IMG/VR virus record: IMGVR_UViG_3300008448_000099
Coordinates: 1 to 56,328 of that record
Strand: one strand, 5' to 3'
DNA length: 56,328 bases
DNA from: a virus
Taxonomy: Duplodnaviria; Caudoviricetes
This document shows positions 4,654 through 49,446 of this stretch, piece by piece. Both the position numbers and the translations under genes were made by a program. Numbering within the stretch: position 1 is the first letter of the stretch; each line of letters starts with the position of its first letter. The notes under the pieces are model-generated. The model had not been told where the DNA came from. It was given only the letters and a program-made list of their open reading frames with translations, and searched no databases.

Positions 4654-4681
4654 AAATTCAAACTATAAAAGGAGATTTACA

Positions 4682-6595: not shown

Positions 6596-6599
6596 GTGA

Positions 6600-7281: not shown

Positions 7282-7282
7282 C

Positions 7283-8330: not shown

Positions 8331-8339
8331 GAGGCTCAG

Positions 8340-12886: not shown

Positions 12887-12888
12887 TC

Positions 12889-17991: not shown

Positions 17992-17993
17992 GC

Positions 17994-19016
17994 ATGGCAA
18001 TTACCCAAGGTGCTCCGTTACCCGATATCACGCAGACGACAACTAGAACCGATACTGCGCCTGATTACTACACTAGTTACCTCCAAAGCCTATCGGACGC
18101 CGCCAAAACAGGCATGGGGCGTACCGCAGAACAAGGAATTGCAGGGTATGACCCACTCCAAACCCTTGGTTATGGCCAAGTAGAAGGTGCTGCCGGGGCA
18201 TATAAACCCGGTCTTTCGGCAGCTACGGCAACAGCAGGAAAGGCTGCGGCCGGCCTTGATCCATCCCGTATTGCCGCTCTCATGGACCCGTATCAAAAGC
18301 AGGTCGTTGATGAGATGGCTCGGCTCCAAGAGCAAAATATCCAACGATCGGTTCTGCCGTCCCTAAAGGGTGCCTTTGTTGGTCGCGGTGACCTAGGAAG
18401 CTCACGGTACGCCGGGGCTACAGGGCAGACCTTAGCCGATATGCAGCGCAACCTGATGGGTCAGCAATACGGTGCCTTATCTCAGGGCTACGGAAACGCT
18501 CTGAAGGCGGCCATGGATGAATTAAACCTTCAGAACCAGGCGGCTCAGGTGCAGGGAAAACTAGCTGAAATGGAGCAGTCTTTAGGGCTGACCGGGGCAG
18601 GAGCCCTATCCAAAGCCGGTGCTGAGAAGCAGGCTTATGAGCAGGCTAAGTTGGACTTTCCAATGAAGACCGCTACCGATGCCGCCGCCTTGATGCGCGG
18701 CTTCCAAGTTCCGACAACCCAAACCGAAAAGTTTGTGGGGCCAAAGGCAGGGATGTATCAGACCTCCCCGCTTTCTAACATCCTTGGCGTTCTTTCTACG
18801 ATTGGCGGAATCAAGGGCGGATCAGCCGGAGACAAGCTAATTGGTAGCGTACTTTCTGGATTTAAAGACCTTTTCTCAGGTGGAGAAGGTGGAGGATTTA
18901 ACTGGGAAGAATGGGCAAAGACTGCATCCGGCACCCCTGGGGAAGGCTACAACTTTGAAGAAGAAGATTATGGCGGTCTTGCTAGAGGTGGTCTCGCTCA
19001 CATTCGCCGCCGTTAG
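17994..19016 (+). CDS. Putative DNA ejection (pilot) protein
   Basis: Q/A/G-rich helical sequence with 'MDPYQKQVVD' and 'GAF...GSSR', as in podovirus ejection proteins. Confidence 0.6.
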   Translation: MAITQGAPLPDITQTTTRTDTAPDYYTSYLQSLSDAAKTGMGRTAEQGIAGYDPLQTLGYGQVEGAAGAYKPGLSAATATAGKAAAGLDPSRIAALMDPYQKQVVDEMARLQEQNIQRSVLPSLKGAFVGRGDLGSSRYAGATGQTLADMQRNLMGQQYGALSQGYGNALKAAMDELNLQNQAAQVQGKLAEMEQSLGLTGAGALSKAGAEKQAYEQAKLDFPMKTATDAAALMRGFQVPTTQTEKFVGPKAGMYQTSPLSNILGVLSTIGGIKGGSAGDKLIGSVLSGFKDLFSGGEGGGFNWEEWAKTASGTPGEGYNFEEEDYGGLARGGLAHIRRR

Positions 19017-19025
19017 GAATTAGAC

Positions 19026-20576: not shown

Positions 20577-20585
20577 GGGTGAGGA

Positions 20586-21926
20586 ATGGAACTATCTTTC
20601 TATAAAAACCTAAACCCAACGCAAAAGGCTTTTGCTGACCGTATTGCGGCCAAAGCAAAAGAGATGGGGATACCCCCTGAGCTTGCCGTATCGGTTGCCT
20701 TCCAAGAAAGCGGCCTGAATCCTCAGGTCGGTAAGGGTGCCGCCGGTGAGATCGGCATCATGCAGATCAAGCCTGCAACGGCCAAAGAGATGGGCTTTAG
20801 CCTTGATGATCTAGCCGACCCAATGAAGAACATTGAGGCCGGTCTTTCCTACCTAAAGAAGTCCTATGAACTAAGCGAAGGCAACCCGAAGTTAGCCGCC
20901 GCAGGGTACAACGCAGGCGTCAATCACCCGTTCTTCAGCTCTAAAGATCAGACCCTGCCTGACACCACGGTCAACTACCTGAAGAGCCTAAACACCTTCG
21001 GTGCGTTTACTGGAGCCCCCGAGAAGAAGACGGTTGAGTTTCAAGAGCCTCCTCCAAGCCAGGAAGCGATCAACCTTCAACAAGAGATTGATAAGGTTGA
21101 TGAAGGCGTTGCCCGTGGGCGTGGTCAGTTAATCGGGGGCGCTTTGGGTGCCGCTGAGACTGCTCGTCGAGCCGCGGTTCCAGCCGCTAGAGGTGCCGCT
21201 AAGTTCCTTGGAAGCGCTATGGAAGAGGGAAGGCTTGCCGCTGAAGCAAAAGCCGCAGCACAGAAACCCCCTATAGGCGGCACGATGGCTCCCGGATTGG
21301 CTTCTGAGTCAACATCCATGAACCGCATCCTACAAGGCACCACGGACGATGCAGGCACTACAGGACGGGCTCGGATGCAGGGATTCAATGTAGAGACCGC
21401 TCAGCAGGCGGCAAGGGCTAAAGAAGCCGCCCGTAATATCGGGGCTCTTCAGCGTCAAGGATTGGTTGCTCAGGGTGTTCCTGACCCATTTGCAAAGGGT
21501 CCAGGCATGACATCTTCTCCGTCAGGGGTTATCTACCCACGGACACCGCCTGTGACTAAGATGCCTCCTGCGGTTCCTAAAAGCGGTCTAGATGAGGTCA
21601 CAGAACTCTTCCGTAAGATGATTGAGCCGGGATCGAAACTCCGCACGGCGGGCGGTGTAGCGATGCGCTATGGGGCTCCTCCGCTTGCTCTGATGCAGGC
21701 AGGTAGCGAGACAGGGGCGATGATCAGCGAAGGCCGTAAAGAGCAGCCTGACTATCTAAAAGCGGGTCTGTCGGGTCTTGGAGCGATCGGCGCAGGAATG
21801 TCGATGTTCCCGGCTACCGCTCCCGTAGGTATCCCGCTTGCAGTTACGGCACCACTTATTCAGTACCTTAGAGAAACAAAATCGGAGCGGCCTGAGGGTC
21901 AGATCTCAGATATTGCCGCTCCATAA
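20586..21926 (+). CDS. Virion-associated lytic transglycosylase (SLT/GH23) ejection protein
   Basis: SLT motifs 'QESG', 'GIMQI.PATA', 'NI.AG..YL' and 'AAAGYNAG' at the N-terminus, with a hydrophobic C-terminal segment. Confidence 0.88.
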   Translation: MELSFYKNLNPTQKAFADRIAAKAKEMGIPPELAVSVAFQESGLNPQVGKGAAGEIGIMQIKPATAKEMGFSLDDLADPMKNIEAGLSYLKKSYELSEGNPKLAAAGYNAGVNHPFFSSKDQTLPDTTVNYLKSLNTFGAFTGAPEKKTVEFQEPPPSQEAINLQQEIDKVDEGVARGRGQLIGGALGAAETARRAAVPAARGAAKFLGSAMEEGRLAAEAKAAAQKPPIGGTMAPGLASESTSMNRILQGTTDDAGTTGRARMQGFNVETAQQAARAKEAARNIGALQRQGLVAQGVPDPFAKGPGMTSSPSGVIYPRTPPVTKMPPAVPKSGLDEVTELFRKMIEPGSKLRTAGGVAMRYGAPPLALMQAGSETGAMISEGRKEQPDYLKAGLSGLGAIGAGMSMFPATAPVGIPLAVTAPLIQYLRETKSERPEGQISDIAAP

Positions 21927-32801: not shown

Positions 32802-33002
32802 ATGCAATACTTGCTAAACCCAAGAAAGAGGATCTCAGCCGCCCACCTATGGTTAGGGGAAGACACCGCCTGTAGGATGTACTCGACGGGAGGGCTCAGA
32901 CCTGAAAGGCAGAAGATCTTCGATAGTCCGATGGGAAAGAAGATATGCCTGATGTGCTCTAACAGTATTGGGAGAGTGGCACAAAAGCCTGATAGCGATT
33001 AG
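32802..33002 (+). CDS. Small Cys/His (Zn-binding) protein
   Basis: GAGGA RBS. H...C...CLMC. Confidence 0.55.
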   Translation: MQYLLNPRKRISAAHLWLGEDTACRMYSTGGLRPERQKIFDSPMGKKICLMCSNSIGRVAQKPDSD

Positions 33003-33038
33003 ACTTGACCTATCATCCATTCGACTGGACTAAGGGTC

Positions 33039-33602
33039 ATGCCTGAAACTCGAACCAAACGAAAGCCAACCGAAACCGAATCGGTTCTTCCCCAAGAAGA
33101 GCAAGCCGCCCAAAAGCCAAAACACCCCGGCGGCCGCCCATCAGACTTCACAGAAGACCTAGCCGCAGAGATATGTGCAAGGATCTCCACAGGAGAGCCA
33201 TTAGTACGGATATGCCGTGACGACCATATGCCTCATGTAGTGACAGTCTATCGTTGGCTGTCCCGAATTACAGAGTTTCGCAATATGTACACACAAGCCA
33301 AGGAAGAGCAGGCAGATACCTTGGCGGAAGAGATACAGGACATTGCTGATCAGATGCCCATGGAGGTGACTGATAAGGATGGGAATACCAAGTTCGATCC
33401 CGCCTACATCAATTGGATGCGCTTGAGGGTGGATGCCCGGAAGTGGACGGCGTCGAAGTTAAAGCCGCGCAAGTACGGCGATCGAGTTGAGTTGGCCGGA
33501 GACAAGGACAACCCCCTGAAGATTGAGGCGGCCATTGAAGCGAAGGGGCTCTTTGACTCCCTCTTGCAGAACATGGAACTGAAGAAGCAGGTAGCCAAGT
33601 AA
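33039..33602 (+). CDS. terS: Terminase small subunit
   Basis: 'GGRPSDFT..LA..IC.RI..GE.L..IC....MP...TVYRWL' HTH and 'RKW.ASKL.PRKYGD'. Immediately upstream of terL. Confidence 0.88.
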   Translation: MPETRTKRKPTETESVLPQEEQAAQKPKHPGGRPSDFTEDLAAEICARISTGEPLVRICRDDHMPHVVTVYRWLSRITEFRNMYTQAKEEQADTLAEEIQDIADQMPMEVTDKDGNTKFDPAYINWMRLRVDARKWTASKLKPRKYGDRVELAGDKDNPLKIEAAIEAKGLFDSLLQNMELKKQVAK

Positions 33603-35024
33603 TTGGATGACCTAGTTGAGATCCTTAAAGATCCGGAAACTCAGGCCAAGTTTGCAACCCTCAAGCCTGAGGATCAGGTCGCCTGGGCTTGGAGGGCTAA
33701 CTGGATCACTAAGGCGCATCGCCACCAGGTTGTCCCGGCTGGGGATTGGTGGACGATATGGCTCATGCTCGCCGGTCGCGGTGCCGGCAAAACCCGGACT
33801 GCTGCGGAGCAGGTGGGGTGGTGGGCGTGGCAGGAACCGGGCACTCGCTGGCTGGTGGGAGCACCAACAAGCTCAGATGTCCGTGCCACTTGTTTTGAGG
33901 GAGACTCAGGGCTCCTATCAGTTATACCCGGTTCACTTGTGGCAGATTACAACCGAGCCTTCCACGAGCTTAAATTGACCAACGGCTCCCTGATCAAGGG
34001 CATCCCAGCCTCAGAACCGGAGCGCTTCCGGGGGCCACAGTTCCACGGGGCATGGCTTGATGAGTTGGCGGCATGGGACTACCTCGACGAGGCGTGGGAT
34101 CAGATCATGTTCGGTGTCCGTCTTGGCCAGAAGACCCGGATCATCTGCACGACTACGCCTAAGCCGCGAGACCTAATCATCGACTTGGTTGGCCGGGAGG
34201 GTGACGATGTCGTCCTGACCACGGCCTCAACCTATGACAACCTCGCCAACCTAGCGCCGTCCTTTCAGAAGCAGATCTTGCAGTATGAGGGCACCAAGCT
34301 TGGCCGGCAGGAGATCTACGCTGAGATCATCGACCCTGAGGAGTCAGGGATCGTCAAGCGGGATATGTTCAGGCTTTGGCCGCACGACAAGGCTTTCCCG
34401 AAGTTTGAGTACATCATTCAGTCCTATGACTGCGCCTACACAGAGAAGACCATCAACGACCCCACGGCCTGTATCACCTGGGGCGTCTTTAAGCCGGTAG
34501 ACGGTCCAATGTCGGTCATGGTCATCGACTGCTGGCAAGACCGCCTTCAGTACCCTGACCTGCGGCCTAAGGTCATTGAGGAGTACGACACCGTCTTCGG
34601 TGAGGGCAAGGAAAGAAAGCGCGTTGACCTGATCCTCGTTGAAGATAAGTCAGCCGGCATCAGCCTGATCCAAGACCTACAGAGGGCGCACCTGCCTGTC
34701 CGGGCTTACAACCCCGGCAATGCCGATAAGGTCCAGCGCCTGAACATCGTCTCTAACATCATCGCCCGTGGCCGGGTGTGGATTCCTGAGAGCTCAGTTC
34801 GGAAGGGTTATGTCCGGGATTGGGCTGAACCCTTTGTCTCGCAGATCTGCTCCTTCCCTGAGTCGACCCATGACGACTTCGTCGATGCTTGTACCCAAGC
34901 GCTGCGGTTCCTGAGAGACGCCGGATGGTTAGAGATCGATCCCCCACCGCGGGATGATTACGACGAGGAAGATGTGATTGATTCAGGGCTTCGGTCTCGC
35001 CGGGAGAATCCTTATGCGGTCTGA
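33603..35024 (+). CDS. terL: Terminase large subunit
   Basis: Walker A 'AGRGAGKT', Walker B 'WLDE', 'TTTP', and RNase H-like nuclease acidic motifs ('SYD', 'VEDK', 'HDDFVDA'). Confidence 0.95.
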   Translation: MDDLVEILKDPETQAKFATLKPEDQVAWAWRANWITKAHRHQVVPAGDWWTIWLMLAGRGAGKTRTAAEQVGWWAWQEPGTRWLVGAPTSSDVRATCFEGDSGLLSVIPGSLVADYNRAFHELKLTNGSLIKGIPASEPERFRGPQFHGAWLDELAAWDYLDEAWDQIMFGVRLGQKTRIICTTTPKPRDLIIDLVGREGDDVVLTTASTYDNLANLAPSFQKQILQYEGTKLGRQEIYAEIIDPEESGIVKRDMFRLWPHDKAFPKFEYIIQSYDCAYTEKTINDPTACITWGVFKPVDGPMSVMVIDCWQDRLQYPDLRPKVIEEYDTVFGEGKERKRVDLILVEDKSAGISLIQDLQRAHLPVRAYNPGNADKVQRLNIVSNIIARGRVWIPESSVRKGYVRDWAEPFVSQICSFPESTHDDFVDACTQALRFLRDAGWLEIDPPPRDDYDEEDVIDSGLRSRRENPYAV

Positions 35025-35083
35025 GTGGCAAGGCTTATTCATAGCAACGACAATGACGAAACCACGGTCAAAGGGCTATTGAT

Positions 35084-38000
35084 ATGGGCAAGATCAACAA
35101 ATTAGTCAAAGCCGCCGAAAAGGCTTCCGAAAAAGCCAATGATGCGGCAGTTAAAGTTGCCCGTCAGATGGCCAAAGAAAGTCAGTATCGGCGCATCCTT
35201 CCGCAGATTAAAGAGCGGGGCGGTGAGTTTGGCGTCCAGCGTCTTGAAAAAGCGTTTGATGAGATCCCAAACATTGACCGGCAATTCAAGGACGAAGCCC
35301 TGATCTATAGTTTGACCCCAGGCGATAACGCCACCTCCCTAATGATCATGCGACCGGGAGACTTTGAGAAGTATGCAGAGCCGCTGGACTTCTTGGGCGA
35401 CCTGAACATCACAGAGCTGGATAAATACCTGAATGAACTGGGCACGATTGCGCGTTCTGGCGGTTTTAGTGATGTGCCATTTCTTGAGATTAACGAAATG
35501 AAAGGTTCTCCGCGGTTGCAGATCAGCGGCCATGAAGGCCGGCACCGGATGCGAGCTCTTGACCGGTTGGGCGATGAGGCATCTTTAGTCCGTGTCTTGC
35601 CAAGAGGGTCAGTCCGTGAGCCACTCCCGCGTCGATCCGCTGATCAATACCTGAAGGCGTTAGCAGAAAAGTATGGCGATCCCCTTGATGTTGAACCTGA
35701 GGTAGCAACCGGTGAGCGCCTATTATTGCCAAAACAATTTGCCGCTGGCGGTGCCATTGATGGAAGTCTGAAGAAGTGGTTTGCGGCTGGAGGCGCAGTT
35801 AAGAAAATGGCAAAGGCTGCAAGCAAAGCCGCAGAGAAGGCTAGCCGTGCAGAGCTTCAAGCCCAAGCCAAGGCGCTAGGCTTGCCTGCCGCACGACCGA
35901 ACTCTGAGCTTCAACGGATGCTGGACTTGGTCAACACCGATCCCAAGACTTGGACGCGGGAAGACTATGAGTTCATGCGGCCACAGTTGGCCATCCATCA
36001 AGACCTGCGCCCCAGAAGCGAGGAGCGGGTTGAATCGATAATGTCCAAGGGTCTCAGCCGTGGAATGGTTGACTACCCGCAGACCATGGAAGGACAGGGA
36101 TACAGTTTCCTGAAGGAGTTGGAGAGTCCAAACAGTTATGTCTTCCTAAGGGGTGGCCTAAAGTTCAAGCCTGATAGCCCGTCATTAGAGGAAGGCAATA
36201 TGCCTCTATTCAAGATCAGCCCGGAGAAGGGTCAGAGCCTTTATGAGGCCATCGTAAACACGGCAGTCAAGGCCGAACCCAAAAAGGCAAACGGAGGCAA
36301 AGTGAGCTCCCCGAACAATAGAGCAATCATGAACTCGCTAGTGAATATGGTGAACCAAGCCTTAGCCGGCAAGCCGATGAAGGCGGGTGGCGTGGTCAAG
36401 ATGCAGAGTGGCGGTAGCCCAACCCAAGCCATCCAAGAGCAGCTGGCCGCTGGCGTCCCCGTGTTTATGTCCCAAGGTCCTGAAGGTGCGGTTGCCCGTC
36501 AGATCATAGCCGATGAGGAAGCAGAGCGACGCCGCAAGGAAGAGGAGCGCAAGGCTCGAGTAGCCGCTCTCCCCCTGAAAGAGAAAGCCCGTGGCGTCAT
36601 GGAGACCGGGCAGACCTTGCAGAACATCGTCGGCCAGGAGCTGCTCAAGCCCTTCCGGATGTTGGCCGGTGGGGAAGAGTCGATCAAGGCTGCGGAAGAG
36701 CGCACACCTCTGCCGACCTCAGAAGCCGGAGTCCATTACCTTGGCGAAACCGGCGAGGCTCTTGGTAAGGTAGGCAAGTTCCTTGAGCCACTCAAGATCC
36801 CTGACACGCCCCTGACAGAGCTGACCCCAACGACCTATCTGCCAGGTCTTAGCCAACAGATCGGGTCGATCGCAAGCAAGGCCGCCAAGACAATAGGGAC
36901 GGCAGTTCCTGAGCACTTTGCTACCGCTCCCGTTGGTGCCGTTGGCGGAGAGAAGATCAAGGTTCCGGCTGATCGGTCAGGCTTTTACTCCCCCACGGAG
37001 AAGGCGGCGGTCAACCTTCAGCGCAAGCAGGGAACCGGCCAAGTATTCCTGAATGACCTGATGAAGCAACCCGATGTCAAAAAGAATGAGCTAGAAGCGA
37101 CCGGGCTGGCTGAGTGGTTGAAGGGCAAGGAAAGCGTCACCAAAGACGAAATCGTTGACTACATCGACAACAACCGGATCGTTATTGAAGAGCGGATGCG
37201 TGGCGAGCCCCTGAGCAAGGATGAGCTGGTCAAACTTCAACAGATTGAACGGGCGGTGTCGAAGGGCTGGTACGATGTCCCGCAAGAGGATCTTGATTGG
37301 TTTGAGCAGACCAAGATGAAGCGTCTCTATTCTGAGATGCAGCCCCCCAACTTTGACCGGGATGACCTGAAGATTGAAGGCGGGAGCAACTACCGTGAGC
37401 TCCTTCTGAAGTTCCCCGTTGAGGAAGGCAAGCCGACTTACACCTCCTCCCATTGGGAATCCGATCCCAATACCTTTGCCCATATCCGGATGCAGGACAC
37501 GACCCTCAATGGCAAAAAGACCTTGGTCATTGAAGAGATCCAATCCGATTGGCACCAAGAGGGCCGGGACAAGGGGTATAGATCCGATGAGGAAAAGATC
37601 AAATGGGAAGACCCGCGCTACGTTGAGGCAAGAAAAAGAAGCATGGAGCTGGGGAATGAATACAACAGAAACAATGACAATCCAGCTCGGCAAGACGAAA
37701 TTCGCCCGTTGCTAGATGAGGTGCGTAACGAAGTTTTCAAAATTGAGCAGTTCAATAACGCAATAGACAAAAGGGTTCCTGAAGCCCCCTTCAAGGACGA
37801 TTGGTATCAGATCGCCTTGAAGCGAGCCATGAAGTACGCCGCAGACAATGACTACGATGCCGTGGCTATTGTTGGCGGGGCGGAGCAAGCTGATCGCTAT
37901 GCCTTGAGCCGCAAGATCGATTCGATCGATGTCAGCAAGGTTGAGGGTGGCCGAACCGTATCGGTTGAGACTAAGGGCAACAAGTTCGTCCAGTTCTTGG

Positions 38001-39610
38001 TTGACGAGAACGGCATCGTTAAAGACTCCTCCTCCCGTGAGTTTGACCGGGCTGAGGGCAAGTCTATCGCCGATGTGGTTGGCAAAGCCGTTGGCCGCGA
38101 GATCATGAAGATGGACGATGGCCGTATTGCCGGCATTGATTTGGATATCGGCGGCGAGGGCATGAAGAAGTATTACGATGAGATCTATCCCCGATTCCTT
38201 GAGAAGCAGTACAGGAAGTACGGGGTCAAGCCTGAACCGACTCAGCGCCCAAAACGTCAATACACAGAGCGGGACATTGAAATTGAGGAGACTGGAGAGG
38301 TGGATCGCTTTGGTCGCCCAACCTATGGGTACTCTGTGATTGACCCTGAAACCGGGGATACGGTTGCCTACGAATCAAACATTGAAAAGGCTATCGCACA
38401 AGCAAACAAGAAGGCTCCCAATGTTCCTCTATGGGTCATGGATGTGCCGGTAAAGATGAAGGCTGATGTGAAGAAGGGTCAGCCGTTCAAAGCCGGTGGC
38501 GCAGTCAAGATGGCCAAGGGCGGTATTGCTAAGATCGCCAAAGCGGCTGAAAAGGCGGCAGGCGCGGCCACCAAGCGTATGAGCCGTGAAGAGGCTGAGA
38601 AGGCTGGCTTATGGCATGGGATCTCTGAGACAAAACTGCCTAAACCCATCGGTGAATACAAGTTCAAGGTAGCTGAGGAAAAGGGAGTGCAAATGCTACC
38701 CCGCAGAGTTATTAGCCCGGAAGAAATGCAGGGCGGAGTTGCCATACCTCTTGCCGGTGATCGAGCCGCTGCAGGCAAAATCATTGAAGAGATCGAAGGC
38801 ATTCCAATGAACGTCCTTCTTGAGGGCGGTGGAGACTTCATGCGCCGCAATCCGGGTAAAGGCTGGGCATCAGAAAAAAACGCTTTAGGCACCATCGGGA
38901 AACAAATCAGAAGAGCCGCTGAGTCTGGAGACCCGGTTTATGGCATTCATACATCGATGAGCCCGGTATCTGTTGACTTCAACACGATGGTTACGGAGTC
39001 TATCCTTAATCGCTTAGATGTTGGCAATTTGCGTAAAAAAGACATTGAAGAATTTGATCGTGCGGTTCGGTCAGTTAAGGGGCAGCAGGGCAAGTTCAAG
39101 GCTCCTAACTTCCCTGGCCTTGCAGATCCTGAATTGCGTGAGAAGCTTATGACGGGGCCAGGCGGCCAGCGAGACGCCTTCGTGAAGACAATGTCAAAAG
39201 CTGGCTTTGCCAAGCGAGGATTTCCTGATGTTGTGCCATCCCGATTGGCGGTAACAGAGGCTGAATTGCTTGATGTCCCCCGTGGCGCTTCAGGCTATGC
39301 AATCGCACAGATGGACCCTGAGGCGAGGATTGTTCAAGAGGTTGGGCATAAGAGCTATCCGTACGAACTGTTGGGCGACTATGTCGGAGGCTTTGAGACA
39401 TTATTGCCTGTAGAGGTCATGTACCCGTCTCACTTTGAAGCCAAGAGGTTGCTTGGTAGCACTCCGGCAGGGGCTCATAAATCATTGGAACTAACCGCCC
39501 CTATTCAATACCTTGACCAACAGTGGCTAGATAACGCAATGAAGTACCTTGAGATGCAGAAAAAGTTAACAGGGCGTAAAAAGGGCGGTCTCGCCCATGT
39601 CCGAAAGTAA
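35084..39610 (+). CDS. Large modular (polyvalent/polyprotein-like) protein between terL and portal
   Basis: 1508 aa with a ParB/Srx-like 'GHEGRHRMRAL' and an 'IEEIQSDWHQ' motif. Modules are separated by xxxGG motifs and 'KAAEKA' helices. Confidence 0.7.
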   Translation: MGKINKLVKAAEKASEKANDAAVKVARQMAKESQYRRILPQIKERGGEFGVQRLEKAFDEIPNIDRQFKDEALIYSLTPGDNATSLMIMRPGDFEKYAEPLDFLGDLNITELDKYLNELGTIARSGGFSDVPFLEINEMKGSPRLQISGHEGRHRMRALDRLGDEASLVRVLPRGSVREPLPRRSADQYLKALAEKYGDPLDVEPEVATGERLLLPKQFAAGGAIDGSLKKWFAAGGAVKKMAKAASKAAEKASRAELQAQAKALGLPAARPNSELQRMLDLVNTDPKTWTREDYEFMRPQLAIHQDLRPRSEERVESIMSKGLSRGMVDYPQTMEGQGYSFLKELESPNSYVFLRGGLKFKPDSPSLEEGNMPLFKISPEKGQSLYEAIVNTAVKAEPKKANGGKVSSPNNRAIMNSLVNMVNQALAGKPMKAGGVVKMQSGGSPTQAIQEQLAAGVPVFMSQGPEGAVARQIIADEEAERRRKEEERKARVAALPLKEKARGVMETGQTLQNIVGQELLKPFRMLAGGEESIKAAEERTPLPTSEAGVHYLGETGEALGKVGKFLEPLKIPDTPLTELTPTTYLPGLSQQIGSIASKAAKTIGTAVPEHFATAPVGAVGGEKIKVPADRSGFYSPTEKAAVNLQRKQGTGQVFLNDLMKQPDVKKNELEATGLAEWLKGKESVTKDEIVDYIDNNRIVIEERMRGEPLSKDELVKLQQIERAVSKGWYDVPQEDLDWFEQTKMKRLYSEMQPPNFDRDDLKIEGGSNYRELLLKFPVEEGKPTYTSSHWESDPNTFAHIRMQDTTLNGKKTLVIEEIQSDWHQEGRDKGYRSDEEKIKWEDPRYVEARKRSMELGNEYNRNNDNPARQDEIRPLLDEVRNEVFKIEQFNNAIDKRVPEAPFKDDWYQIALKRAMKYAADNDYDAVAIVGGAEQADRYALSRKIDSIDVSKVEGGRTVSVETKGNKFVQFLVDENGIVKDSSSREFDRAEGKSIADVVGKAVGREIMKMDDGRIAGIDLDIGGEGMKKYYDEIYPRFLEKQYRKYGVKPEPTQRPKRQYTERDIEIEETGEVDRFGRPTYGYSVIDPETGDTVAYESNIEKAIAQANKKAPNVPLWVMDVPVKMKADVKKGQPFKAGGAVKMAKGGIAKIAKAAEKAAGAATKRMSREEAEKAGLWHGISETKLPKPIGEYKFKVAEEKGVQMLPRRVISPEEMQGGVAIPLAGDRAAAGKIIEEIEGIPMNVLLEGGGDFMRRNPGKGWASEKNALGTIGKQIRRAAESGDPVYGIHTSMSPVSVDFNTMVTESILNRLDVGNLRKKDIEEFDRAVRSVKGQQGKFKAPNFPGLADPELREKLMTGPGGQRDAFVKTMSKAGFAKRGFPDVVPSRLAVTEAELLDVPRGASGYAIAQMDPEARIVQEVGHKSYPYELLGDYVGGFETLLPVEVMYPSHFEAKRLLGSTPAGAHKSLELTAPIQYLDQQWLDNAMKYLEMQKKLTGRKKGGLAHVRK

Positions 39611-39622
39611 GGAAAAGAGAAA

Positions 39623-42166
39623 ATGGCTGAAGAATTCCCCATCGATCCTGAGTTCAACCGATTTATTGAGGGCATTCCTGACCCTACCGCAGAGGCTGAA
39701 GACGGCTCTGTAGAGGTCGAACTGCCTGAGTTGACTGAGGCAGACATTGAAGAACTCCCTGACGGCTCAGCAATCGTCAAAATGCCCACGCAAGGGCCTA
39801 TGGAGAACGAAGACTTCTATCAAAACCTAGCCGATGACGACAGTTTTGACAGTTTTGAACTCCAAAAGATGGCTCTGAAGTACCAAGACCTGATCAAAAA
39901 GGACAAGGAAAGCCGCAAAAAGCGTGATGAGCAGTACGAAGAGGGCATTCGCCGCACCGGTTTAGGCAATGATGCCCCCGGTGGAGCGTCCTTCACGGGC
40001 GCTTCCAAGGTCGTTCACCCAGTTATGGCTGAGGCTTGCGTGGATTTTGCCGCCCGCGCCATTAAAGAACTGTTCCCGCCCGATGGTCCGACCAAGACCA
40101 AGATCGTTGGTGATGTGGATGAAGAGAAAGTCAACATCGCTGAGCGCAAGCGCGACTGGATGAATTGGCAGCTGACGGAGCAGATCGAAGAATTCCGGGA
40201 TGAAGAGGAGCAGATGCTTACCCAACTGCCGTTGGGAGGCTCTCAGTACCTCAAACTCTGGTACGACGAGCGTAAAAAACGCCCCTGTGCAGAGTTTCTG
40301 CCCATTGATAATGTACTTTTACCATTCGCTGCGGGAAATTTCTACACCGCTCAGCGGGTGACTGAGATTCAGGACATCACCTCCTACGAATTCAAACGCC
40401 GTATCGCTGCCGGCCTATACCGAGACATCAGCCTGATCCGTGCGACTGCCTATCCTGAGGAAACCGCCCCTGAGAAGGCCAACTACAAGGTCGAAGGCAA
40501 GACTCCGGATGAGAACGAAGACGGGGTTCGCCGCGTTTATCACATCTATACCTTTCTTGAACTTGAGGAAGACAAGTATTCCAAGGGTGAGATCGCCCCA
40601 TACATCCTGATGATCGACGAGTTGGAGAACGAAGTGGTCGGTCTCTACCGAAATTGGGAAGAAGGCGATGAATCCATGACCAAACTCGATTGGATCGTGG
40701 AGTTCAAGTTCATCCCCTGGCGCGGTGCCTACGCCGTTGGCCTGCCACACCTCATTGGAGGCTTAGCCGCCGCCCTGACAGGCGCATTGCGAGCCCTACT
40801 AGACTCTGCCCACATCAACAACGCCGCCACACTCTTGAAGTTGAAGGGCGCAAAGGTGTCCGGGCAGAGCCAACAAGTGGAAATCACGCAGGTTTCTGAG
40901 ATTGAGGCCGCTCCCGGTGTGGATGACGTCCGGAAATTAGCCATGCCCATGCCGTTTAACCCGCCAAGCCCGGTTCTCTTTGAGCTCATGGGCTGGCTGA
41001 CCAATGCCGCCAAGGGCGTTGTCACCACGGCAGAGGAAAAAATTGCCGATGTGGGTCAAAACACCCCGGTTGGCACGACTCAAGCGCTAATTGAGCAGGG
41101 AGCGTCCGTATTTTCGTCAATCCATGCCCGTTTGCATGAGTCTCAGGCGCGAGTCCTGAAGATTCTTGGCCGGATTAACCGCTGGTACTTGGAAGACATG
41201 AAAAAAGGCGATGTCGTCGCTGATTTAGAGATCAGCCGGGACGACTTTGCCAAGAATACGGACATCATGCCGGTCTCTGACCCGCATATCTTCTCCGAAA
41301 CTCAGCGGATGGCGCAGACCCAGGCGGTTATGGCCATCATGCAACAGAATCCTGACCTCTTTAACCGTAAGGCGGTCATCTCCCGGTTCCTAAAGCAGAT
41401 CAAGGTGCCGCAGGTCAATGAGTTGATGATCGATATGCCGTCCCCTGAGAAGTTAGACCCGGCCAATGAGAATGTGGCCATGTCGATCGGGCAGATGGCG
41501 TTTGCCTACCCTGAGCAGGATCACCTGGCTCATATTCAGAGCCACCTAGACTTCGCTAAAGACCCCGTCTTTGGTAGCAACCCTCTGATCGCCCCCGCCT
41601 TTATTCCTAAGGCGATGGAGCATATCAAACAGCACATCGTGCTTTGGTACCTTGGTCGGGCTAAGGGCTATGTCACTAAGTCCTTGGATGGTCAGCCGCA
41701 TGAGAACTACGCCATGGTTCAAGATCCCAAGGATATTGACCGCCTGTACTCCATGGCCTCTCAGCACATCAGCCTCGATACAGAGCAGACCCTACAGGGC
41801 ATCCTGCCTGTCCTTCAGCAGATGATGCAGACGGCTCAGCAGTTCAAGCCGCAACCGCCTATGACCGCGGATGCCAAGGTTCTCTTGGATACCTCCATGG
41901 CTGAGACTCAGCGCCGTGCTCAGCGCGATCAGGCTGAGATGGCTCTAAAAGACAAGGAGATGGCCGCCGACATTGAGCGGGATATGGCCAAGATGGAGGC
42001 CGACTATCAGTTGGCTATGGAAGAACAGAAGTACAAGCTCGCCATTGCTTTGGGCGACCTAGAGATGAAGGAACGCATCGAAACGGCACGGTTAACCCGT
42101 GATGCGGCTCGGTTGAAGTTCGACCAAGACAAGACCGCTTTTGAAACCATCCGTAAAGGAGAATGA
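39623..42166 (+). CDS. Portal protein
   Basis: 847 aa. 'VVHPVMAEACVDF.ARA..ELFP..GP' and a C-terminal Q/M-rich coiled coil (P22-like barrel). Position after terL. Confidence 0.85.
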   Translation: MAEEFPIDPEFNRFIEGIPDPTAEAEDGSVEVELPELTEADIEELPDGSAIVKMPTQGPMENEDFYQNLADDDSFDSFELQKMALKYQDLIKKDKESRKKRDEQYEEGIRRTGLGNDAPGGASFTGASKVVHPVMAEACVDFAARAIKELFPPDGPTKTKIVGDVDEEKVNIAERKRDWMNWQLTEQIEEFRDEEEQMLTQLPLGGSQYLKLWYDERKKRPCAEFLPIDNVLLPFAAGNFYTAQRVTEIQDITSYEFKRRIAAGLYRDISLIRATAYPEETAPEKANYKVEGKTPDENEDGVRRVYHIYTFLELEEDKYSKGEIAPYILMIDELENEVVGLYRNWEEGDESMTKLDWIVEFKFIPWRGAYAVGLPHLIGGLAAALTGALRALLDSAHINNAATLLKLKGAKVSGQSQQVEITQVSEIEAAPGVDDVRKLAMPMPFNPPSPVLFELMGWLTNAAKGVVTTAEEKIADVGQNTPVGTTQALIEQGASVFSSIHARLHESQARVLKILGRINRWYLEDMKKGDVVADLEISRDDFAKNTDIMPVSDPHIFSETQRMAQTQAVMAIMQQNPDLFNRKAVISRFLKQIKVPQVNELMIDMPSPEKLDPANENVAMSIGQMAFAYPEQDHLAHIQSHLDFAKDPVFGSNPLIAPAFIPKAMEHIKQHIVLWYLGRAKGYVTKSLDGQPHENYAMVQDPKDIDRLYSMASQHISLDTEQTLQGILPVLQQMMQTAQQFKPQPPMTADAKVLLDTSMAETQRRAQRDQAEMALKDKEMAADIERDMAKMEADYQLAMEEQKYKLAIALGDLEMKERIETARLTRDAARLKFDQDKTAFETIRKGE

Positions 42167-42167
42167 A

Positions 42168-42338
42168 ATGTCGGATTACGACAAAGAGCAGAAAACTGAG
42201 TTCGTACCTCAGCACAAACGGATCGCCATGGGCGTTCCTCTTGACGGACAAGATATGCGTCCTTCAAGCAACAAAACCGAATCGGATAGCGATTCGCAAC
42301 CGAAAGGGGGGCTATCACAAGCGACTAAAACCAAATGA
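42168..42338 (+). CDS. Small hypothetical protein
   Basis: AAGGAG RBS before ATG 42168. 'VPQHKRIAMG' motif. Confidence 0.6.
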   Translation: MSDYDKEQKTEFVPQHKRIAMGVPLDGQDMRPSSNKTESDSDSQPKGGLSQATKTK

Positions 42339-42520
42339 GCACAGCAGCAGATCTGATCGGCGCAATTAAGACTAGGCAGGCTGAAATAGCCGCGTCCCTT
42401 GCCGGCGGTACGGCAACGAGTTGGGAGTCTTATCAGCGTTTGGTCGGGCAACACCAGGGCTTACAGGAAGCCTTGGACATACTCAACAACCTATTAAAGG
42501 ATGATGATGCAGATGAATGA
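42335..42520 (+). CDS. Small helical hypothetical protein
   Basis: ATGA overlap. 'Y..LVG...GL..AL' motif preceding the GroES-like gene. Confidence 0.65.
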   Translation: MSTAADLIGAIKTRQAEIAASLAGGTATSWESYQRLVGQHQGLQEALDILNNLLKDDDADE

Positions 42521-42941
42521 ACCGGTAGCGTGTAATGACGCTGAGTTGGCTTGGGCTTTTCCGAGCGTAGACCCCGGTGCGAAACCCCTTGGTGCCCGTG
42601 TATTAGTTCAGTTGCGGCGCACAAAAAAGAAGGCGACTAGCGCAGGGATTATTTTGGTTGAAGAGACCAAAGAAACCGAGAAGTGGAACAACATGGTGGC
42701 TAGAGTCATTGAGATCGGCCCCTTGGCGTTCAAAAAGCGCGACACGATGGAGCCATGGCCTGAGGGCTCATGGTGTGAGGTTGGCGACTATATCCGCGTC
42801 CCGAAGTGGGGCGGCGATCGTTGGGAAGTAGAAGTCCCCGGCGAGAAGGATGAGGACCCTGCCCTCTTTATGGTGTTAAACGACCATGAAGTCATTGCCA
42901 AATTGACCGGCGATCCGCTAGCAGTCAAAGCCTTTATCTAA
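42513..42941 (+). CDS. groES: GroES-like co-chaperonin
   Basis: 'KPLGARVLV', mobile-loop 'TSAGIIL', 'VIEIGP', 'VGD.I...KWGG' and 'LNDHEVIA'. Confidence 0.8.
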   Translation: MNEPVACNDAELAWAFPSVDPGAKPLGARVLVQLRRTKKKATSAGIILVEETKETEKWNNMVARVIEIGPLAFKKRDTMEPWPEGSWCEVGDYIRVPKWGGDRWEVEVPGEKDEDPALFMVLNDHEVIAKLTGDPLAVKAFI

Positions 42942-42950
42942 GGGGAAACC

Positions 42951-43898
42951 ATGAGCGAAGAAATCAAAGACGAAGATATCAAGGTATCTGAAGAGAAGGA
43001 CGGCTCTGCCACCGTTGAGGTGCCGGAGAGCCTGATGCCCTCGGAGAAAGAACAAGACGATCAGCCTGAGGAACAAAAGGCTGAGGCTTCTGCTGACGAC
43101 TCTGATGAGGATCACCCCGATGACACGGATGCCGTCCGGGAAGCCCGCAGAGCCCGCCGCAAGGCAAAAAAGGAGTACATCAAGCGCACCAACCAAGAGA
43201 AGGATCAGCGTCTTGCCATGCTAGACCGGCAGAACAAGGAGTTGATGGCTCGGTTGGCCGCAGTAGAAAAGCGTACCCATATGCAAGACCTAGCCTCAAT
43301 CGACAAGGCGATCTCCGACGAGAATGCCCGGTTGAGTTACGCCAAGATGAAGATGAAGGAGGCGGCTGACAACTCTGACGGCCAAGCCCTGATTAAGGCA
43401 AAGGAGCTTTGGGACGAAGTAAAAGACCGGATTGAGAAGCTACAGGTCTATAAAAAGCAAAGCGAAGTAGTGCCTGAGCCTCCTGCCGACCCGATTGTTA
43501 AGGAATTGGCTGAAGAGTGGATGGATCGCAACCCTTGGTACGACCCCGATCTGTCCGACCGTGATAGCAAGATCGCCAAGCGGATCGATAACCAACTTGT
43601 AAAAGAAGGTTGGGACCCCGGTACCGAAGATTATTGGGAAGAACTCGACGCACGGTTGCAGAAACAAAGATCTCGCCAATATACTGAAACTAATGACGAG
43701 GTTCCACGAAAGAGAGGTCCTAAAAGCGTCGTAACCGGAAGCGAAAGAGAGACGGGTGGTGGCGGAAGCCGGAACACCTTGACCCTGTCGCCTGAGCAAG
43801 TACGAGCCATTAAGGAAGCGGGAATGTGGGATGACCCCAAGAAACGCAACCGAATGATTCAAAAATACGCCGAATACGCACGCACAAATAGGAGCTAA
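42951..43898 (+). CDS. Putative scaffolding protein
   Basis: Acidic N-terminus, long coiled coil and a C-terminal helix hairpin. Lies between portal and capsid. Confidence 0.65.
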   Translation: MSEEIKDEDIKVSEEKDGSATVEVPESLMPSEKEQDDQPEEQKAEASADDSDEDHPDDTDAVREARRARRKAKKEYIKRTNQEKDQRLAMLDRQNKELMARLAAVEKRTHMQDLASIDKAISDENARLSYAKMKMKEAADNSDGQALIKAKELWDEVKDRIEKLQVYKKQSEVVPEPPADPIVKELAEEWMDRNPWYDPDLSDRDSKIAKRIDNQLVKEGWDPGTEDYWEELDARLQKQRSRQYTETNDEVPRKRGPKSVVTGSERETGGGGSRNTLTLSPEQVRAIKEAGMWDDPKKRNRMIQKYAEYARTNRS

Positions 43899-45085: not shown

Positions 45086-46000
45086 ATGGCAGCCCCGATG
45101 CGTAGTACCGACTTTAGAAGTATTGTTGAGCCAATCCTTAACGAATGCTTCGATGGAGTCTATGATCAGCGTACCGATGAGTGGTCGCGTGTTTTCCGCG
45201 AGCAACAAGGTATTCCCCGCAACTATCACGAAGAGCCCGTCCTTTATGGATTTGGCGCTGCGCCCCAACTGCCTGACGGTACTCCGGTAACGTATCAGCA
45301 GGGTGGCGTACTCTTCCTGAAGCGCTATGTGTACTCGGTGTATGGCCTTGCCTTCGCCCTGACCAAAGTGCTCGTGGAAGACGGCGACCATATCCGTATT
45401 GGTCAGGTATATGCTCGTCACCTAGCTCAGTCCTTGATTGAAACCAAGGAAACGCTGGCTGCGAACATTCTTAACCGTGCGTTTAACTCCGCTTACCCTG
45501 GTGGCGATGGCGTTCAACTGAACTCCGCTTCGCATCCGATTGTAAACGGTACATTCAGCAACCTGCTGACAACCCCTGCAAACCTGTCGCAGACCTCGCT
45601 TGAGCAGATGCTCATTCAGATCCGTCAGGCAGTAGACAACAACGGCAAGAAGATCCGTTTGGTGCCCCGTCAGTTGGTCGTGGCTCCTGGCAATGTCTTC
45701 CAAGCTGAAGTTCTGCTGAAGTCCGTGCTCCGTGCAGGCAACGCAAACAACGACATCAACCCGATCAAGTCCATTGGACTGCTCGACGAGGGTGCTGCTG
45801 TTCTGTCGCGTCTGACCTCTGCAACGGCTTGGTGGGTTCAGACGGATGCTCCGGAAGGCATGAAGCTCATGATGCGTCGTGGTCTTGAGAAGACCATGGA
45901 AGGTGACTTTGAGACCGACACAATGCGGTACAAGGCAACTGAGCGTTATGACCTCGGCTTCACCGATCCCCGTGCTATGTACGGTACACCTGGCGTCTAA
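45086..46000 (+). CDS. Major capsid protein
   Basis: 304 aa with an AAGGAGG RBS and strongly biased codons. HK97/Mu gpT-like features: 'YGLAF..T....ED', 'LVVAP', 'GDFET...RYKA.ERY..G..DPR..YG'. Confidence 0.85.
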   Translation: MAAPMRSTDFRSIVEPILNECFDGVYDQRTDEWSRVFREQQGIPRNYHEEPVLYGFGAAPQLPDGTPVTYQQGGVLFLKRYVYSVYGLAFALTKVLVEDGDHIRIGQVYARHLAQSLIETKETLAANILNRAFNSAYPGGDGVQLNSASHPIVNGTFSNLLTTPANLSQTSLEQMLIQIRQAVDNNGKKIRLVPRQLVVAPGNVFQAEVLLKSVLRAGNANNDINPIKSIGLLDEGAAVLSRLTSATAWWVQTDAPEGMKLMMRRGLEKTMEGDFETDTMRYKATERYDLGFTDPRAMYGTPGV

Positions 46001-46733: not shown

Positions 46734-47621
46734 ATGGGTCAGTTCAAGCCAATGGTCAAAATGATGACCACGGAGCCCACCGTTGAGTTAAAACTCAAAA
46801 AGGGCGGGAAGGTTGAGAAGAAGATGCAGTCGGGCGGGGCTTTGGCTTCCACGGCTTCTCCTGCCCCGGCAGCAATGTCGATGGCAGGGGATACCATGGG
46901 TGGTGCCGCTCCTATGCGTCCTTCTTTGGCCGCTCGTCGCCGCATGATGCGTAATCGTCCTTCAGGTGCGGCTCCCGCTGCTCCCGTTGGTTCGGCAGCA
47001 CAAGTCATGAAAAAAGGCGGTGAGACCAAGGCTGAACACGCAGCCGAGATGAAGAAAATGGCTAAGACCGCTGAGAAGCTGAAAGAGCACGCCGACAAGC
47101 CTGCTTCCAAGGCTCACAAGGGTCTGAAGACAGGCGGCGTTGTGAAGGGTCAAGGCGGTTACAAGACCGGTGGCGTAGTGATGGGTCAGGGCGGCTATAA
47201 GGCCGGCGGGATCATCACGGAGAAGGAAGGGTCGAAAGACGCTGGTGAATACAAAAACACCAAGATGGTCACGACCAAGCCCGATCATTCGCCTGCAAAA
47301 ACCGGTGGCGTGAAGCTCGGCAACGGCGGTGGCTACAAGAAAGGCGGTGCCGCAAAAAAGTATGCTGAGGGCGGGTCGGTGAACGATTCTGGTAAGGCTG
47401 AAAAGATGCCTCAGGGTCGTAAGAAGCCGTCTGCGTCCGTAAGCATTACTGAACTCTCCGGAACCTTCAAAAAGGGTGGGTCAGTAATGACCCCGGCAGA
47501 GAAGCGTTTGACTAAGGTATTTGATAAGGAAAACGCCCCTGCAATGAAGGCTGCTAAGACCAAGGATGTTGAGGTCTATAGCAAGTACGGAAAGAAAATG
47601 CGGTACGGTGGTTCGTGCTAA
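46734..47621 (+). CDS. Lys-rich low-complexity protein with 11 xxxGG motifs (putative internal head protein)
   Basis: LKKGG, MQSGG, MKKGG, LKTGG, YKTGG, YKAGG, AKTGG, YKKGG, YAEGG, FKKGG and MRYGG. Confidence 0.7.
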   Translation: MGQFKPMVKMMTTEPTVELKLKKGGKVEKKMQSGGALASTASPAPAAMSMAGDTMGGAAPMRPSLAARRRMMRNRPSGAAPAAPVGSAAQVMKKGGETKAEHAAEMKKMAKTAEKLKEHADKPASKAHKGLKTGGVVKGQGGYKTGGVVMGQGGYKAGGIITEKEGSKDAGEYKNTKMVTTKPDHSPAKTGGVKLGNGGGYKKGGAAKKYAEGGSVNDSGKAEKMPQGRKKPSASVSITELSGTFKKGGSVMTPAEKRLTKVFDKENAPAMKAAKTKDVEVYSKYGKKMRYGGSC

Positions 47622-48978: not shown

Positions 48979-49446
48979 ATGGCTATGAATCCTATGGGTG
49001 ACGACTTTAAATTGATGACCCCAATTGCTCCAGATGTAAAAAGCCCGTTACGCGCTGGGCCAGACTTGACTCCTCGTCAAATTTTTAATCAACAACGAGA
49101 AGCCGCACAAGTTGCTAGACGAACTGCTATGCAGCCAGTTCGTCAAATGCAAGATATTGCTCAACGGCGTGCAGCAAAAGAGTCTGTTATGTCAAATTAT
49201 AAAAACGCAGTTGAAAAAGCAAGGGATGCTTTTAACCTTGCTAAAGCAGGTCCGCGCACTGGTGGGGATATGTTGCCACCCGGAAAGGCTCCAATTACCG
49301 ACATGGGTCCGGGTAGTGGTCTAGCGCCAAAAGCAGGGCAACCAATGGCATCCGCCCCAGTACCAAGTACTCCACCCGGAATGAAAAAGGGCGGCAAGAC
49401 TACCGTGGTAAAGACGGCCTCCAAAGGCAGAAAGTGCGATTGGTAA
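48979..49446 (+). CDS. Low-complexity protein with MKKGG motif
   Basis: Contiguous in the operon. Ends in CDW. Confidence 0.6.
   Translation: MAMNPMGDDFKLMTPIAPDVKSPLRAGPDLTPRQIFNQQREAAQVARRTAMQPVRQMQDIAQRRAAKESVMSNYKNAVEKARDAFNLAKAGPRTGGDMLPPGKAPITDMGPGSGLAPKAGQPMASAPVPSTPPGMKKGGKTTVVKTASKGRKCDW

Follow-up and report, generated by a model that had tools for sequence, protein, structure and literature searches.

The window analysed here is the whole of IMG/VR virus record IMGVR_UViG_3300008448_000099 (Duplodnaviria; Caudoviricetes), which is complete at 56,328 bp, carries direct terminal repeats and has almost all of its genes on the plus strand. This study concerns P0001, a large open reading frame (ORF) situated between the genes for the large terminase (terL) and the portal, and the Gly-Gly (GG) motifs that lie at its module junctions, or seams (Table 1). 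A first-pass annotation had described P0001 as a polyprotein-like cargo of four modules, delimited by xxxGG motifs and Lys/Ala-rich leader helices, that would be packaged, cut at the GG sites and injected. The location of this cargo ORF between terL and portal was confirmed by Pfam and PHROG matches. All three genes are on the same strand, with a gap of 59 nucleotides (nt) between terL and the cargo and of 12 nt between the cargo stop and the portal start. A terminator scan revealed no plus-strand terminator-like site at the terL-cargo or the cargo-portal junction; the one site on the plus strand (37852-37865) was inside the cargo ORF, and the total for both strands (11, compared with a mean of 11.5 in shuffles) was at chance level. 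When nucleotides 33000-43000 were compared with named phages by megablast, no matches were obtained.

Table 1. Features of P0001 and of the surrounding genes in the 56,328-bp window.
Feature	Position	Strand	Remarks
P0001 cargo ORF	35084-39610	+	1,508 amino acids (aa), Cys-free, four modules, polyvalent-type as judged from homologues and architecture
Module 1, residues 1-218	35084-35737	+	Lys/Ala leader helix 2-60, alpha/beta core 64-204, SGHEGRHRxRA
Seam J1, residues 219-239	35738-35800	+	FAAGGAIDGSLKKWFAAGGAV
Module 2, residues 240-399	35801-36280	+	Leader helix KMAKAASKAAEKA, then rare domain
Seam J2, residues 400-444	36281-36415	+	KANGG ... MKAGGVVKMQSGG
Module 3 N-terminal extension, residues 445-622	36416-36949	+	Contains MLAGG at 529
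Module 3 core, residues 623-1132	36950-38479	+	Predicted GNAT-like fold with helical-hairpin insert
Seam J3, residues 1133-1147	38480-38524	+	QPFKAGGAVKMAKGG
Module 4, residues 1148-1497	38525-39574	+	Leader helix IAKIAKAAEKAAGAA, then conserved domain
C-terminal tag	39575-39607	+	RKKGGLAHVRK
Small terminase	33039-33602		Sf6-type
Large terminase (terL), left border of cargo slot	33603-35024	+	Pfam Terminase_6N + Terminase_6C
Portal, right border of cargo slot	39623-42166	+	phrog_1216
GroES-like protein	42501-42941		
Scaffold-like protein	42951-43898		Acidic, helical
Two small conserved proteins	Between scaffold-like gene and capsid gene		
HK97-type capsid protein	45086-46000		Phage_capsid_4 / Mu gpT-like
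229-aa protein	Between capsid gene and 295-aa protein gene		
295-aa basic protein	46734-47621	+	Gly/Lys-rich, no family match found
Tail-fibre genes, then 1,716-, 340-, 516- and 446-aa proteins	Further along the window		

All eight xxxGG motifs of the first-pass annotation were present in the translation of 35084-39610: FAAGG occurs at nt 35738 and again at nt 35780, KANGG at residues 400-404, MKAGG at nt 36377, MQSGG at nt 36401, FKAGG at nt 38486, MAKGG at nt 38510, and RKKGG at residues 1498-1502, six residues ahead of the stop. The three Lys/Ala 'KAAEKA' helices were also found where they had been placed (KLVKAAEKASEKA, residues 6-18; KMAKAASKAAEKA, residues 240-252; and KIAKAAEKAAGAA, residues 1150-1162), as were the motifs GHEGRHR (149-155), HIRMQD (800-805) and IEEIQSDWHQ (816-825). 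The further statement that the motifs fall only at boundaries had to be narrowed: it does not hold for the bare GG dipeptide, which is found at 22 positions, and two [FM]xxGG sites, FLRGG at 357 and MLAGG at 529, were missing from the list, but it does hold for matches to the family consensus. With the pattern [FMYL][AKQR]xGG[AVILKSGE], a consensus derived from 121 family members, P0001 contained six matches, and all six were located at the three junctions. Composition-preserving shuffles of P0001 gave a mean of 0.33 matches, and none of 500 reached six.

Across the 121 family proteins, 253 distinct motif windows yielded the consensus [M/Y/F]-[A/K]-[K/A/R]-G-G-[A/K/L]-V-K, frequently in the form of a doublet, GGAVKM-x-x-GG, that is followed by an Ala/Lys-rich stretch. 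An unbiased count of 1,119 distinct GG windows placed information at -3, -2, -1 and +3 relative to the first Gly, so that it flanks GG on both sides, and the strongest conserved position was the Val two residues after GG. Among the 90 closest proteins, 334 pattern matches were counted, compared with 27 expected. Copies of the motif differ in their codons (TTT GCC GCT GGC GGT GCC in one, TTT GCG GCT GGA GGC GCA in another), and conservation is therefore at the peptide level; DNA-level repeats as the source of the motif were rejected for the same reason. In AlphaFold2 (AF2) models, all seams fell in stretches of low confidence, the predicted local distance difference test (pLDDT) being 53-61 at J1, partly below 50 at J2, and 25-38 at J3. 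We read the GG seam as a short linear motif under selection, placed where the chain is predicted to be flexible and exposed.

A search of 5.8 billion proteins returned 156 relatives of P0001 at E ≤ 0.001 among 8,000 scored candidates. BLASTP comparison of P0001 with 120 listed homologues produced 213 high-scoring segment pairs (HSPs) with 426 ends, and these ends were piled up at residues 220-240, 390-435, 620-635, 1040-1055, 1130-1150 and 1500-1508. HSP starts clustered at residues 392-435 (J2) and 26 HSP ends were within 1140-1149 (J3), while the piles away from motifs corresponded to sub-domain limits inside module 3. Ends within 12 residues of the motifs of the first-pass annotation numbered 135 of 426, compared with 42 expected; in an all-against-all comparison, where ends are not independent, 4,910 of 29,652 internal HSP ends were near a motif, compared with 1,410 expected. 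Gain, loss and shuffling of modules at GG boundaries, proposed beforehand as a test, were indeed observed in the 120 homologues and in 25 related phage loci, where modules change order, drop out, are duplicated or become separate genes. Module 4 stands ahead of module 3 in P0021, P0023, P0026 and P0027, and module 1 follows module 3 in P0051, P0053 and P0055; one or other of these two orders recurs in numerous proteins and loci. Moreover, P0021 starts with Met-Gly, aligned on the GG of J3, and is then colinear with the post-GG sequence of P0001.

The true ends of the family proteins resembled the internal seams. Most N-termini were Lys/Ala-rich leaders similar in kind to the helices inside P0001, and C-termini fell into classes that each consist of GG and a short tail (GRKKGGLAxxxx, GGKVxFxxxxDAMRxELxKxK and GGxIxxDDLIxEERPL). 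Most homologues that terminate in module 4 ended in the same tag class as RKKGGLAHVRK, and the last GG was no more than 35 residues from the C-terminus in 42 of 114 motif-bearing proteins. P0042 (1,347 aa), which was considered as a second copy in the window, is not encoded there and is 33% identical to P0001.

A single-protein query against viral contigs gave 11 candidates, of which none was confirmed, but alignment-driven scans succeeded and recovered at least 538 relatives of module 3 (from the first 600 candidates) and at least 232 of module 1 (from 370 candidates). Eighty module-3 loci were kept; 25 of these include a portal like that of the window, and 20 include both the end of terL and the start of the portal gene. 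In all 20, the cargo occupied the same position between terL and portal, in a slot of 3,469-7,508 nt that held one large Cys-poor ORF in nine loci and two in the other eleven. The module orders encountered included M1-M3-M4, M4-M3, M3-M4, M1-M4-M3, M3-M1 and M4-M3-M1, together with duplicated M3. Where the cargo was split, the upstream gene ended in a GG tag in 11 of 11 loci, and the downstream gene opened with a Lys/Ala-rich leader in eight (the exceptions being L056, L060 and L081). The nearest relative, L005, whose TerL and portal are 90% and 88% identical to those of the window, is without module 2, exactly between two seams: its alignment breaks right after FA(A/E)GG(A/Y)ID and resumes at M(K/A)AGG(V/E)V(K/H)M, that is, from J1 to J2. 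Identity to the window was 86-98% for the capsid protein, 66-93% for TerL, 59-88% for the portal, and 23-69% for the cargo modules. The earlier description of the locus as a cassette of independent modules in a variable terL-portal slot was borne out by the permuted modules and by cargo identities of 23-69% beside 86-98% for the capsid protein. Ten relatives also presented an unusually sharp contrast within one head module, the capsid protein being 86-98% identical, the scaffold-like protein 38-72% identical, and the cargo reshuffled.

When the portal was used to find named relatives, MW202545.1 (63% identity), four Caulobacter phages (45%) and the Roseobacter phages CRP-901 and CRP-902 (34%) were recovered, along with pelagiphages HTVC023P and HTVC027P. 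The terL-portal slot of MW202545.1 is filled by a different, 890-aa protein with GG motifs and a GP88-type domain, and a homologue of the GG-rich 295-aa protein is likewise present in this phage. Caulobacter phage RW (L003) has no cargo gene, its slot containing a tRNA only (tRNA-Val), and within 17 kb around its portal the only motif matches were a single one in the capsid fold and another in a 116-aa ORF. In the same phage, at 2445-5247, terL is annotated as two coding sequences with a gene for an S-adenosylmethionine (SAM)-dependent methyltransferase between them. In Roseobacter phage CRP-902 (L004), cargo is found after the portal as separate genes (5182-13686), and module 4 is free-standing as gp72. 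The proteins gp65, gp66, gp68 and gp72 of CRP-902 have the leader MANP(V/I)KGA... in common at their start, apparently another kind of shared N-terminal tag.

No Pfam family matched P0001 or any of five separate segments, even at E ≤ 5, and phmmer of P0001 and a profile of alignment A1 against PDB sequences were at chance level (E 0.72 and 0.035, respectively). One PHROG of giant proteins, labelled 'endolysin', matched residues 767-962. For module 1, the AF2 model built from a 70-sequence alignment had a pLDDT of about 80-98 over residues 1-220. Foldseek hits of this model were mostly ParB, Noc, KorB, PadC, sulfiredoxin, SerK and SbnI, all weak (best E 0.067); VIA gave Z ≤ 5.0 (sulfiredoxin 6ky4, root-mean-square deviation 4.5, 82 of 89 aligned), and VIA-wide on the model of modules 1 and 2 returned mostly single long helices, with sulfiredoxin at rank 11 (Z 4.9). 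The motif SGHEGRHRxRA was invariant or nearly so in the 70 module-1 sequences. The active site of ParB has a conserved Arg-containing motif of the GxxRxxA type, to which SGHEGRHRxRA was likened by eye only. Residues 1-232 gave no curated Pfam ParB match at E ≤ 5, and ParB_N Pfam matches of P0032, P0044 and P0059 were rejected as support for module 1, as they cover residues 92-157 in a different module. The ParB/Srx-like assignment of the first-pass annotation thus retains weak support from fold comparison but none from Pfam, and module 1 may tentatively be called ParB/Srx-like.

The AF2 model of module 3 (15 sequences) had a pLDDT mostly of 65-90, with a helical hairpin inserted at model residues 211-276. 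Residues H800, R802, Q804, D805, E818, Q820, S821, D822, W823, H824 and Q825 were invariant. NatD was the best Foldseek hit (E 8.2e-3, prob 0.99; none at E ≤ 0.001), and VIA-wide gave Z 8.0-10.1 to GNAT-type chains with 105-152 residues aligned, values to be read in the light of the tool's own statement that Z 7-8 is common. At least 24 of the 50 VIA-wide rows were named acetyl- or acyltransferases, including the tRNA-acetylating toxins AtaT and TacT. The loop of GNAT enzymes that binds the pyrophosphate of acetyl-CoA reads Q/R-x-x-G-x-G/A; by eye, the segment ahead of helix WYQIALKRAMKYA reads PFKDDW, without Gly, and the usual acetyl-CoA loop is not kept. No Pfam GNAT match was obtained at E ≤ 5, and the ESM Atlas returned unnamed clusters at 0.84-0.86. 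We predict a GNAT-like fold for module 3, as a modest assignment. The N-terminal extension is kept with module 3 in close relatives (tblastn matches in L005, L054, L056 and L060).

Module 2 was present in few homologues (P0006, P0008, P0010, P0019, P0020 and P0023) and was not found in the 80 module-3 loci at E 1e-5; its AF2 model was poor, with pLDDT below 50 at residues 305-377. For module 4, the model was mostly below pLDDT 50 and the ESM Atlas gave no usable match, while the alignment contained many invariant polar residues. No fold was assigned to modules 2 and 4 because their models lie below pLDDT 50, which says nothing about the novelty of their folds.

The GG motif is not confined to P0001. 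The 295-aa protein encoded at 46734-47621 consists largely of it, with ten pattern matches compared with 0.23 expected (0 of 500 shuffles reached ten), and ends in ...MRYGGSC. Relatives with GG cargo keep a gene for this protein downstream of their capsid gene (41-78% identity, ten loci), and tblastn against named phages gave no matches. Five of the other 35 ORFs tested carry one or two pattern matches. The motif stands near the C-termini of the ORFs at 12841-17991, 17994-19016 and 48979-49446. The second of these, of 340 aa, ends in LARGGLAHIRRR (18975-19016), which is near-identical to the RKKGGLAHVRK of the unrelated P0001. The first encodes a Cys-free protein of 1,716 aa with no family match, whose last ~90 residues (...GDGQSDSIPAMLADGEFVIPADVV...) match C-terminal parts of annotated tape measure proteins of Gordonia, Nitrincola and other phages (E 6e-11 to 6e-4); three GG motifs are found just upstream of this end.

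The 1,716-, 340-, 516- and 446-aa ORFs (12841-21926) appear to form a set of ejection-type proteins, which is suggested by the SLT transglycosylase domain of the 446-aa protein. These four ORFs (3,018 aa in total) contain no Cys. P0001 also contains none, compared with 7.9 expected from the other 36 ORFs (71 Cys in 13,572 aa); TerL and the methyltransferase have seven and eight, respectively. Absence of Cys may be a sign of proteins that leave the head unfolded. Elsewhere in the window, the ORFs 54939-56327 (open 3' end) and 3-986 (open 5' end) match the same tail-fibre PHROGs, 19943 and 24898, and may be one gene spanning the ends of the record or two paralogues.

Polyvalent proteins were described by Iyer, Burroughs, Anand, de Souza and Aravind in 2017 from phages and conjugative elements (PMC5512222). 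According to the text of that paper, the domains from which the class was defined include ART-PolyVal, the LPDs, MPTase and DdrB-ParB, and the repertoire comprises ParB/Srx-type, GNAT and ART domains; about 35% of polyvalent proteins are in phages with portal-terminase systems and are predicted to be packaged, and processing into units is likewise predicted, with release by an embedded zincin-like MPTase as the proposed route (PMC5512222). Many of the listed homologues of P0001 carry ART-PolyVal, LPD23, PcfJ, ParB or RadC domains, and three of six scanned slot ORFs of relatives matched ART-PolyVal, LPD23 or PcfJ; homologues and slot ORFs together displayed ART-PolyVal, LPD23, PcfJ, ParB_N, RadC, InPase, LPD3 and LPD22. 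P0001 itself combines more than one unrelated mobile domain (four independent modules in varying order, two of which model as distinct folds), and its gene is among the late/virion genes with portal and terminase. The signature domains are on the homologues and slot ORFs, P0001 itself having neither a Pfam match nor MPTase-PolyVal. As judged from its homologues and architecture, P0001 would be a phage polyvalent protein, a known class: like the polyvalent proteins of that paper, it is large, multidomain and encoded with the portal-terminase late genes; unlike in the scheme proposed there (PMC5512222), the window contains no MPTase-PolyVal match, and the modules match no Pfam LPD model. The main text of PMC5512222 does not mention linkers, glycine motifs, boundaries, shuffling or disorder, and a literature search found no description of the GG seam. 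The GG seam and leader-helix cassette are thus apparently an undescribed junction grammar within this known class.

We tentatively favour, with somewhat less than even confidence, the explanation that P0001 is cargo in which the GG seam acts as an exposed loading handle or hinge and needs no cut. The four self-contained cassettes would be made late, together with the head genes, as one chain that enters the capsid and later passes into the host along with the DNA. In most cassettes, a Lys/Ala-rich leader helix would be followed by a domain and then by a tail with [M/Y/F]-[A/K]-x-G-G-x-V. As a handle, the seam would tie each cassette to the head interior during assembly and let the chain exit unfolded; it would also be a neutral joint that keeps any order of cassettes functional. 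The modular anatomy, the shuffling at seams, the peptide-level conservation of the motif and its recurrence in virion-region proteins are observed. Packaging and injection we infer from the late-operon position, from the absence of Cys as in ejection-type proteins, and from homologues with ART-PolyVal, LPD23 and PcfJ; the effector role and the handle function would follow the same reading. A docking handle or hinge accounts for the data no less well than a cleavage site does, and a motif that is present at true termini and fills the 295-aa protein suits a multivalent docking peptide. Several points weigh against this explanation. The seam doublets (GGAVKMAKGG) are just what a processing site would show, GG tags located 6-25 residues from C-termini fit such a site as well, and the internal post-GG sequences mimic true N-termini, as they would there. 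No partner for the GG motif was identified in this analysis. P0001 matches no Pfam family (E ≤ 5, five segments), so that its class is drawn from homologues and architecture; its predicted folds are modest (Z 8-10 for module 3, Z ≤ 5 for module 1); packaging and the uncut state are deduced from sequence; and the absence of Cys may partly be a general trait of the structural proteins of this phage.

In the model of the first-pass annotation, P0001 would be a true polyprotein: a protease, either an unrecognised phage enzyme in the head or a host enzyme after ejection, would cut after GG at each seam and free four effectors that each start with a leader helix, while the GG tags of other internal proteins would be trimmed and the 295-aa protein chopped into small basic peptides. 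In favour of this model, residues that follow an internal GG match the true N-termini of homologues, those that precede GG match true C-termini, the structure models predict flexible seams, and the motif is common to several virion-region proteins, as with the substrates of one maturation protease. Some relatives also carry a RadC/JAB-type domain. However, a six-frame search of the complete genome for nine peptidase families (RadC/JAB, Prok-JAB, MPTase-PolyVal, S78, S77, S49, C39, C48 and ClpP, with positive controls in reference genomes) returned nothing at E ≤ 1, and no protease was among the hits when 37 ORFs were scanned with Pfam or PHROG. The capsid protein begins directly with its N-arm, without a delta domain, and a separate scaffold-like gene is present, an arrangement that is usual for heads maturing without a protease. 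As no single module recurs in every GG-bearing cargo, self-processing by a shared module is unlikely. The strongest conserved position, the Val two residues after GG, and a cut six residues from the C-terminus, which would have no obvious use, likewise speak against cleavage. Polyvalent proteins are, according to the text of PMC5512222, predicted to be processed into units, and AVP and pS273R are Gly-Gly-X precedents from eukaryotic viruses (PMC4246237, PMC10308890); on balance, we regard cleavage as possible but rather doubtful, second to the handle or hinge. A 178-aa protein encoded between the scaffold and capsid genes was rejected as a candidate GG protease: it has no family match and is also found in Caulobacter phage RW, which lacks GG cargo. 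Complex prediction with the capsid protein, the scaffold-like protein and a 56-residue J3 peptide (score 0.00, mark 0.32) counts neither way.

If the seams were plain hinges, that is, flexible and recombination-tolerant joints with no binding partner and no protease, the motif in other proteins would be explained by a need for hinges there as well. Their position in low-pLDDT stretches between domains, the exchange of modules at seams and the failure to find a partner or protease all agree with this, but the conserved hydrophobic residue at -3 and the Val at +3 would be needless, the motif is kept at true N- and C-termini where nothing is joined (as in the 42 of 114 proteins with a last GG within 35 aa of the C-terminus), and ten repeats in a domain-less 295-aa protein would be unexpected. 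We consider plain hinges improbable. P0001 might instead be a late cytoplasmic multi-enzyme, modifying for example DNA or host proteins during packaging, that is merely encoded between terL and portal. Packaging of P0001 is putative, and the producing cell offers targets for the predicted ParB/Srx-like and GNAT-like folds, which could act there on proteins or on DNA undergoing replication or packaging. Against such a non-virion role, Cys is absent as in the ejection-type ORFs and unlike in TerL or the methyltransferase, the motif is common to candidate internal proteins, very fast change of the cargo beside near-identical head genes fits an arms-race effector, and relatives carry domains of polyvalent proteins that the text of PMC5512222 proposes to be delivered with DNA; we rate this role the least probable, below plain hinges. 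The exposed handle or hinge is ranked first because no protease was found among the families and ORFs searched, the capsid protein lacks a delta domain and a scaffold-like gene is present, no module is shared by all GG cargo, the motif is present at true termini, and it fills the domain-less 295-aa protein.

Parallels to the GG seam exist in several known systems. In phage T4, internal proteins have a capsid-targeting sequence that is N-terminal only and is removed by the prohead protease gp21; T4 internal proteins and the P1 head proteins Dar/DdrB are ejected as anti-defence effectors. As in T4 and P1, a short conserved peptide is common to otherwise unrelated proteins and would here mark the head interior; unlike in T4, the GG motif stands between modules as well as at either end, the cargo forms a single fused chain, and no protease could be recognised. 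Minor head proteins of the MuF/SPP1-gp7 type are fused to toxin domains and encoded next to the portal. P0001 shares with them variable effector domains, a portal-adjacent gene and, presumably, carriage in the head, but no MuF domain was found, the gene is ahead of the portal, and there are several cassettes rather than one C-terminal toxin. Encapsulin cargo-loading peptides are short, Gly-rich, with alternating hydrophobic residues and a basic end, often C-terminal, and serve to dock cargo on the inner face of an HK97-fold shell. The tags KKGGLAHVRK and ARGGLAHIRRR resemble these peptides in look; unlike them, the GG motif also occurs internally and at N-termini, and DNA fills the phage shell. 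The cleavage-site consensus of AVP and pS273R is of the hydrophobic-x-G-G type. AVP of adenovirus, and pS273R of African swine fever virus (ASFV) on pp220 and pp62, carry out polyprotein processing at Gly-Gly-X (PMC4246237, PMC10308890). As in these viruses, a site of the hydrophobic-x-G-G type recurs in several (here putative) core proteins, and polyprotein-like chains would form part of the particle interior; in contrast, adenovirus and ASFV encode a clan-CE cysteine protease, whereas a C48 (Ulp1-type) search of the phage genome gave nothing. The hydrophobic residue of the GG seam is also one position further from GG than in the adenovirus/ASFV site, and these eukaryotic viruses are unrelated to the phage. 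Processing of P1 head proteins is quoted, and MuF-type proteins are mentioned, in the text of PMC5512222.

A wider idea, which we hold to be conceivable but on the unlikely side, is a Gly-Gly code that marks every head-interior protein in a widespread aquatic phage group and is read by an unrecognised reader. The marked set would comprise the cargo cassettes, the tape-measure-like and ejection proteins, and the motif-only basic protein; the reader would be a pocket on the HK97-fold shell or the scaffold, in the manner of encapsulins, or a new GG-specific maturation protease. If this code is true, any domain between a leader helix and a GG tail would be plug-and-play cargo, which would explain the fast turnover of the terL-portal slot, and foreign proteins could be loaded into phage heads by means of this portable tag.

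Polyvalent proteins are regarded as the first weapons that a phage delivers, and for the loading, separation and exchange of their units only a predicted embedded metallopeptidase has been proposed so far. Here, a phage lineage without a recognised protease shows a simple junction grammar of leader helix, domain and GG tail, and its units are swapped, deleted, duplicated and split at the GG junctions in nature. Three sizeable domains without a curated family, modules 2, 3 and 4, have been isolated, and module 3 occurs in at least several hundred contigs. If the seam is a loading or processing signal, cargo proteins would be readable directly from phage metagenomes, and the seam would supply a short tag with which selected proteins could be packaged into capsids.

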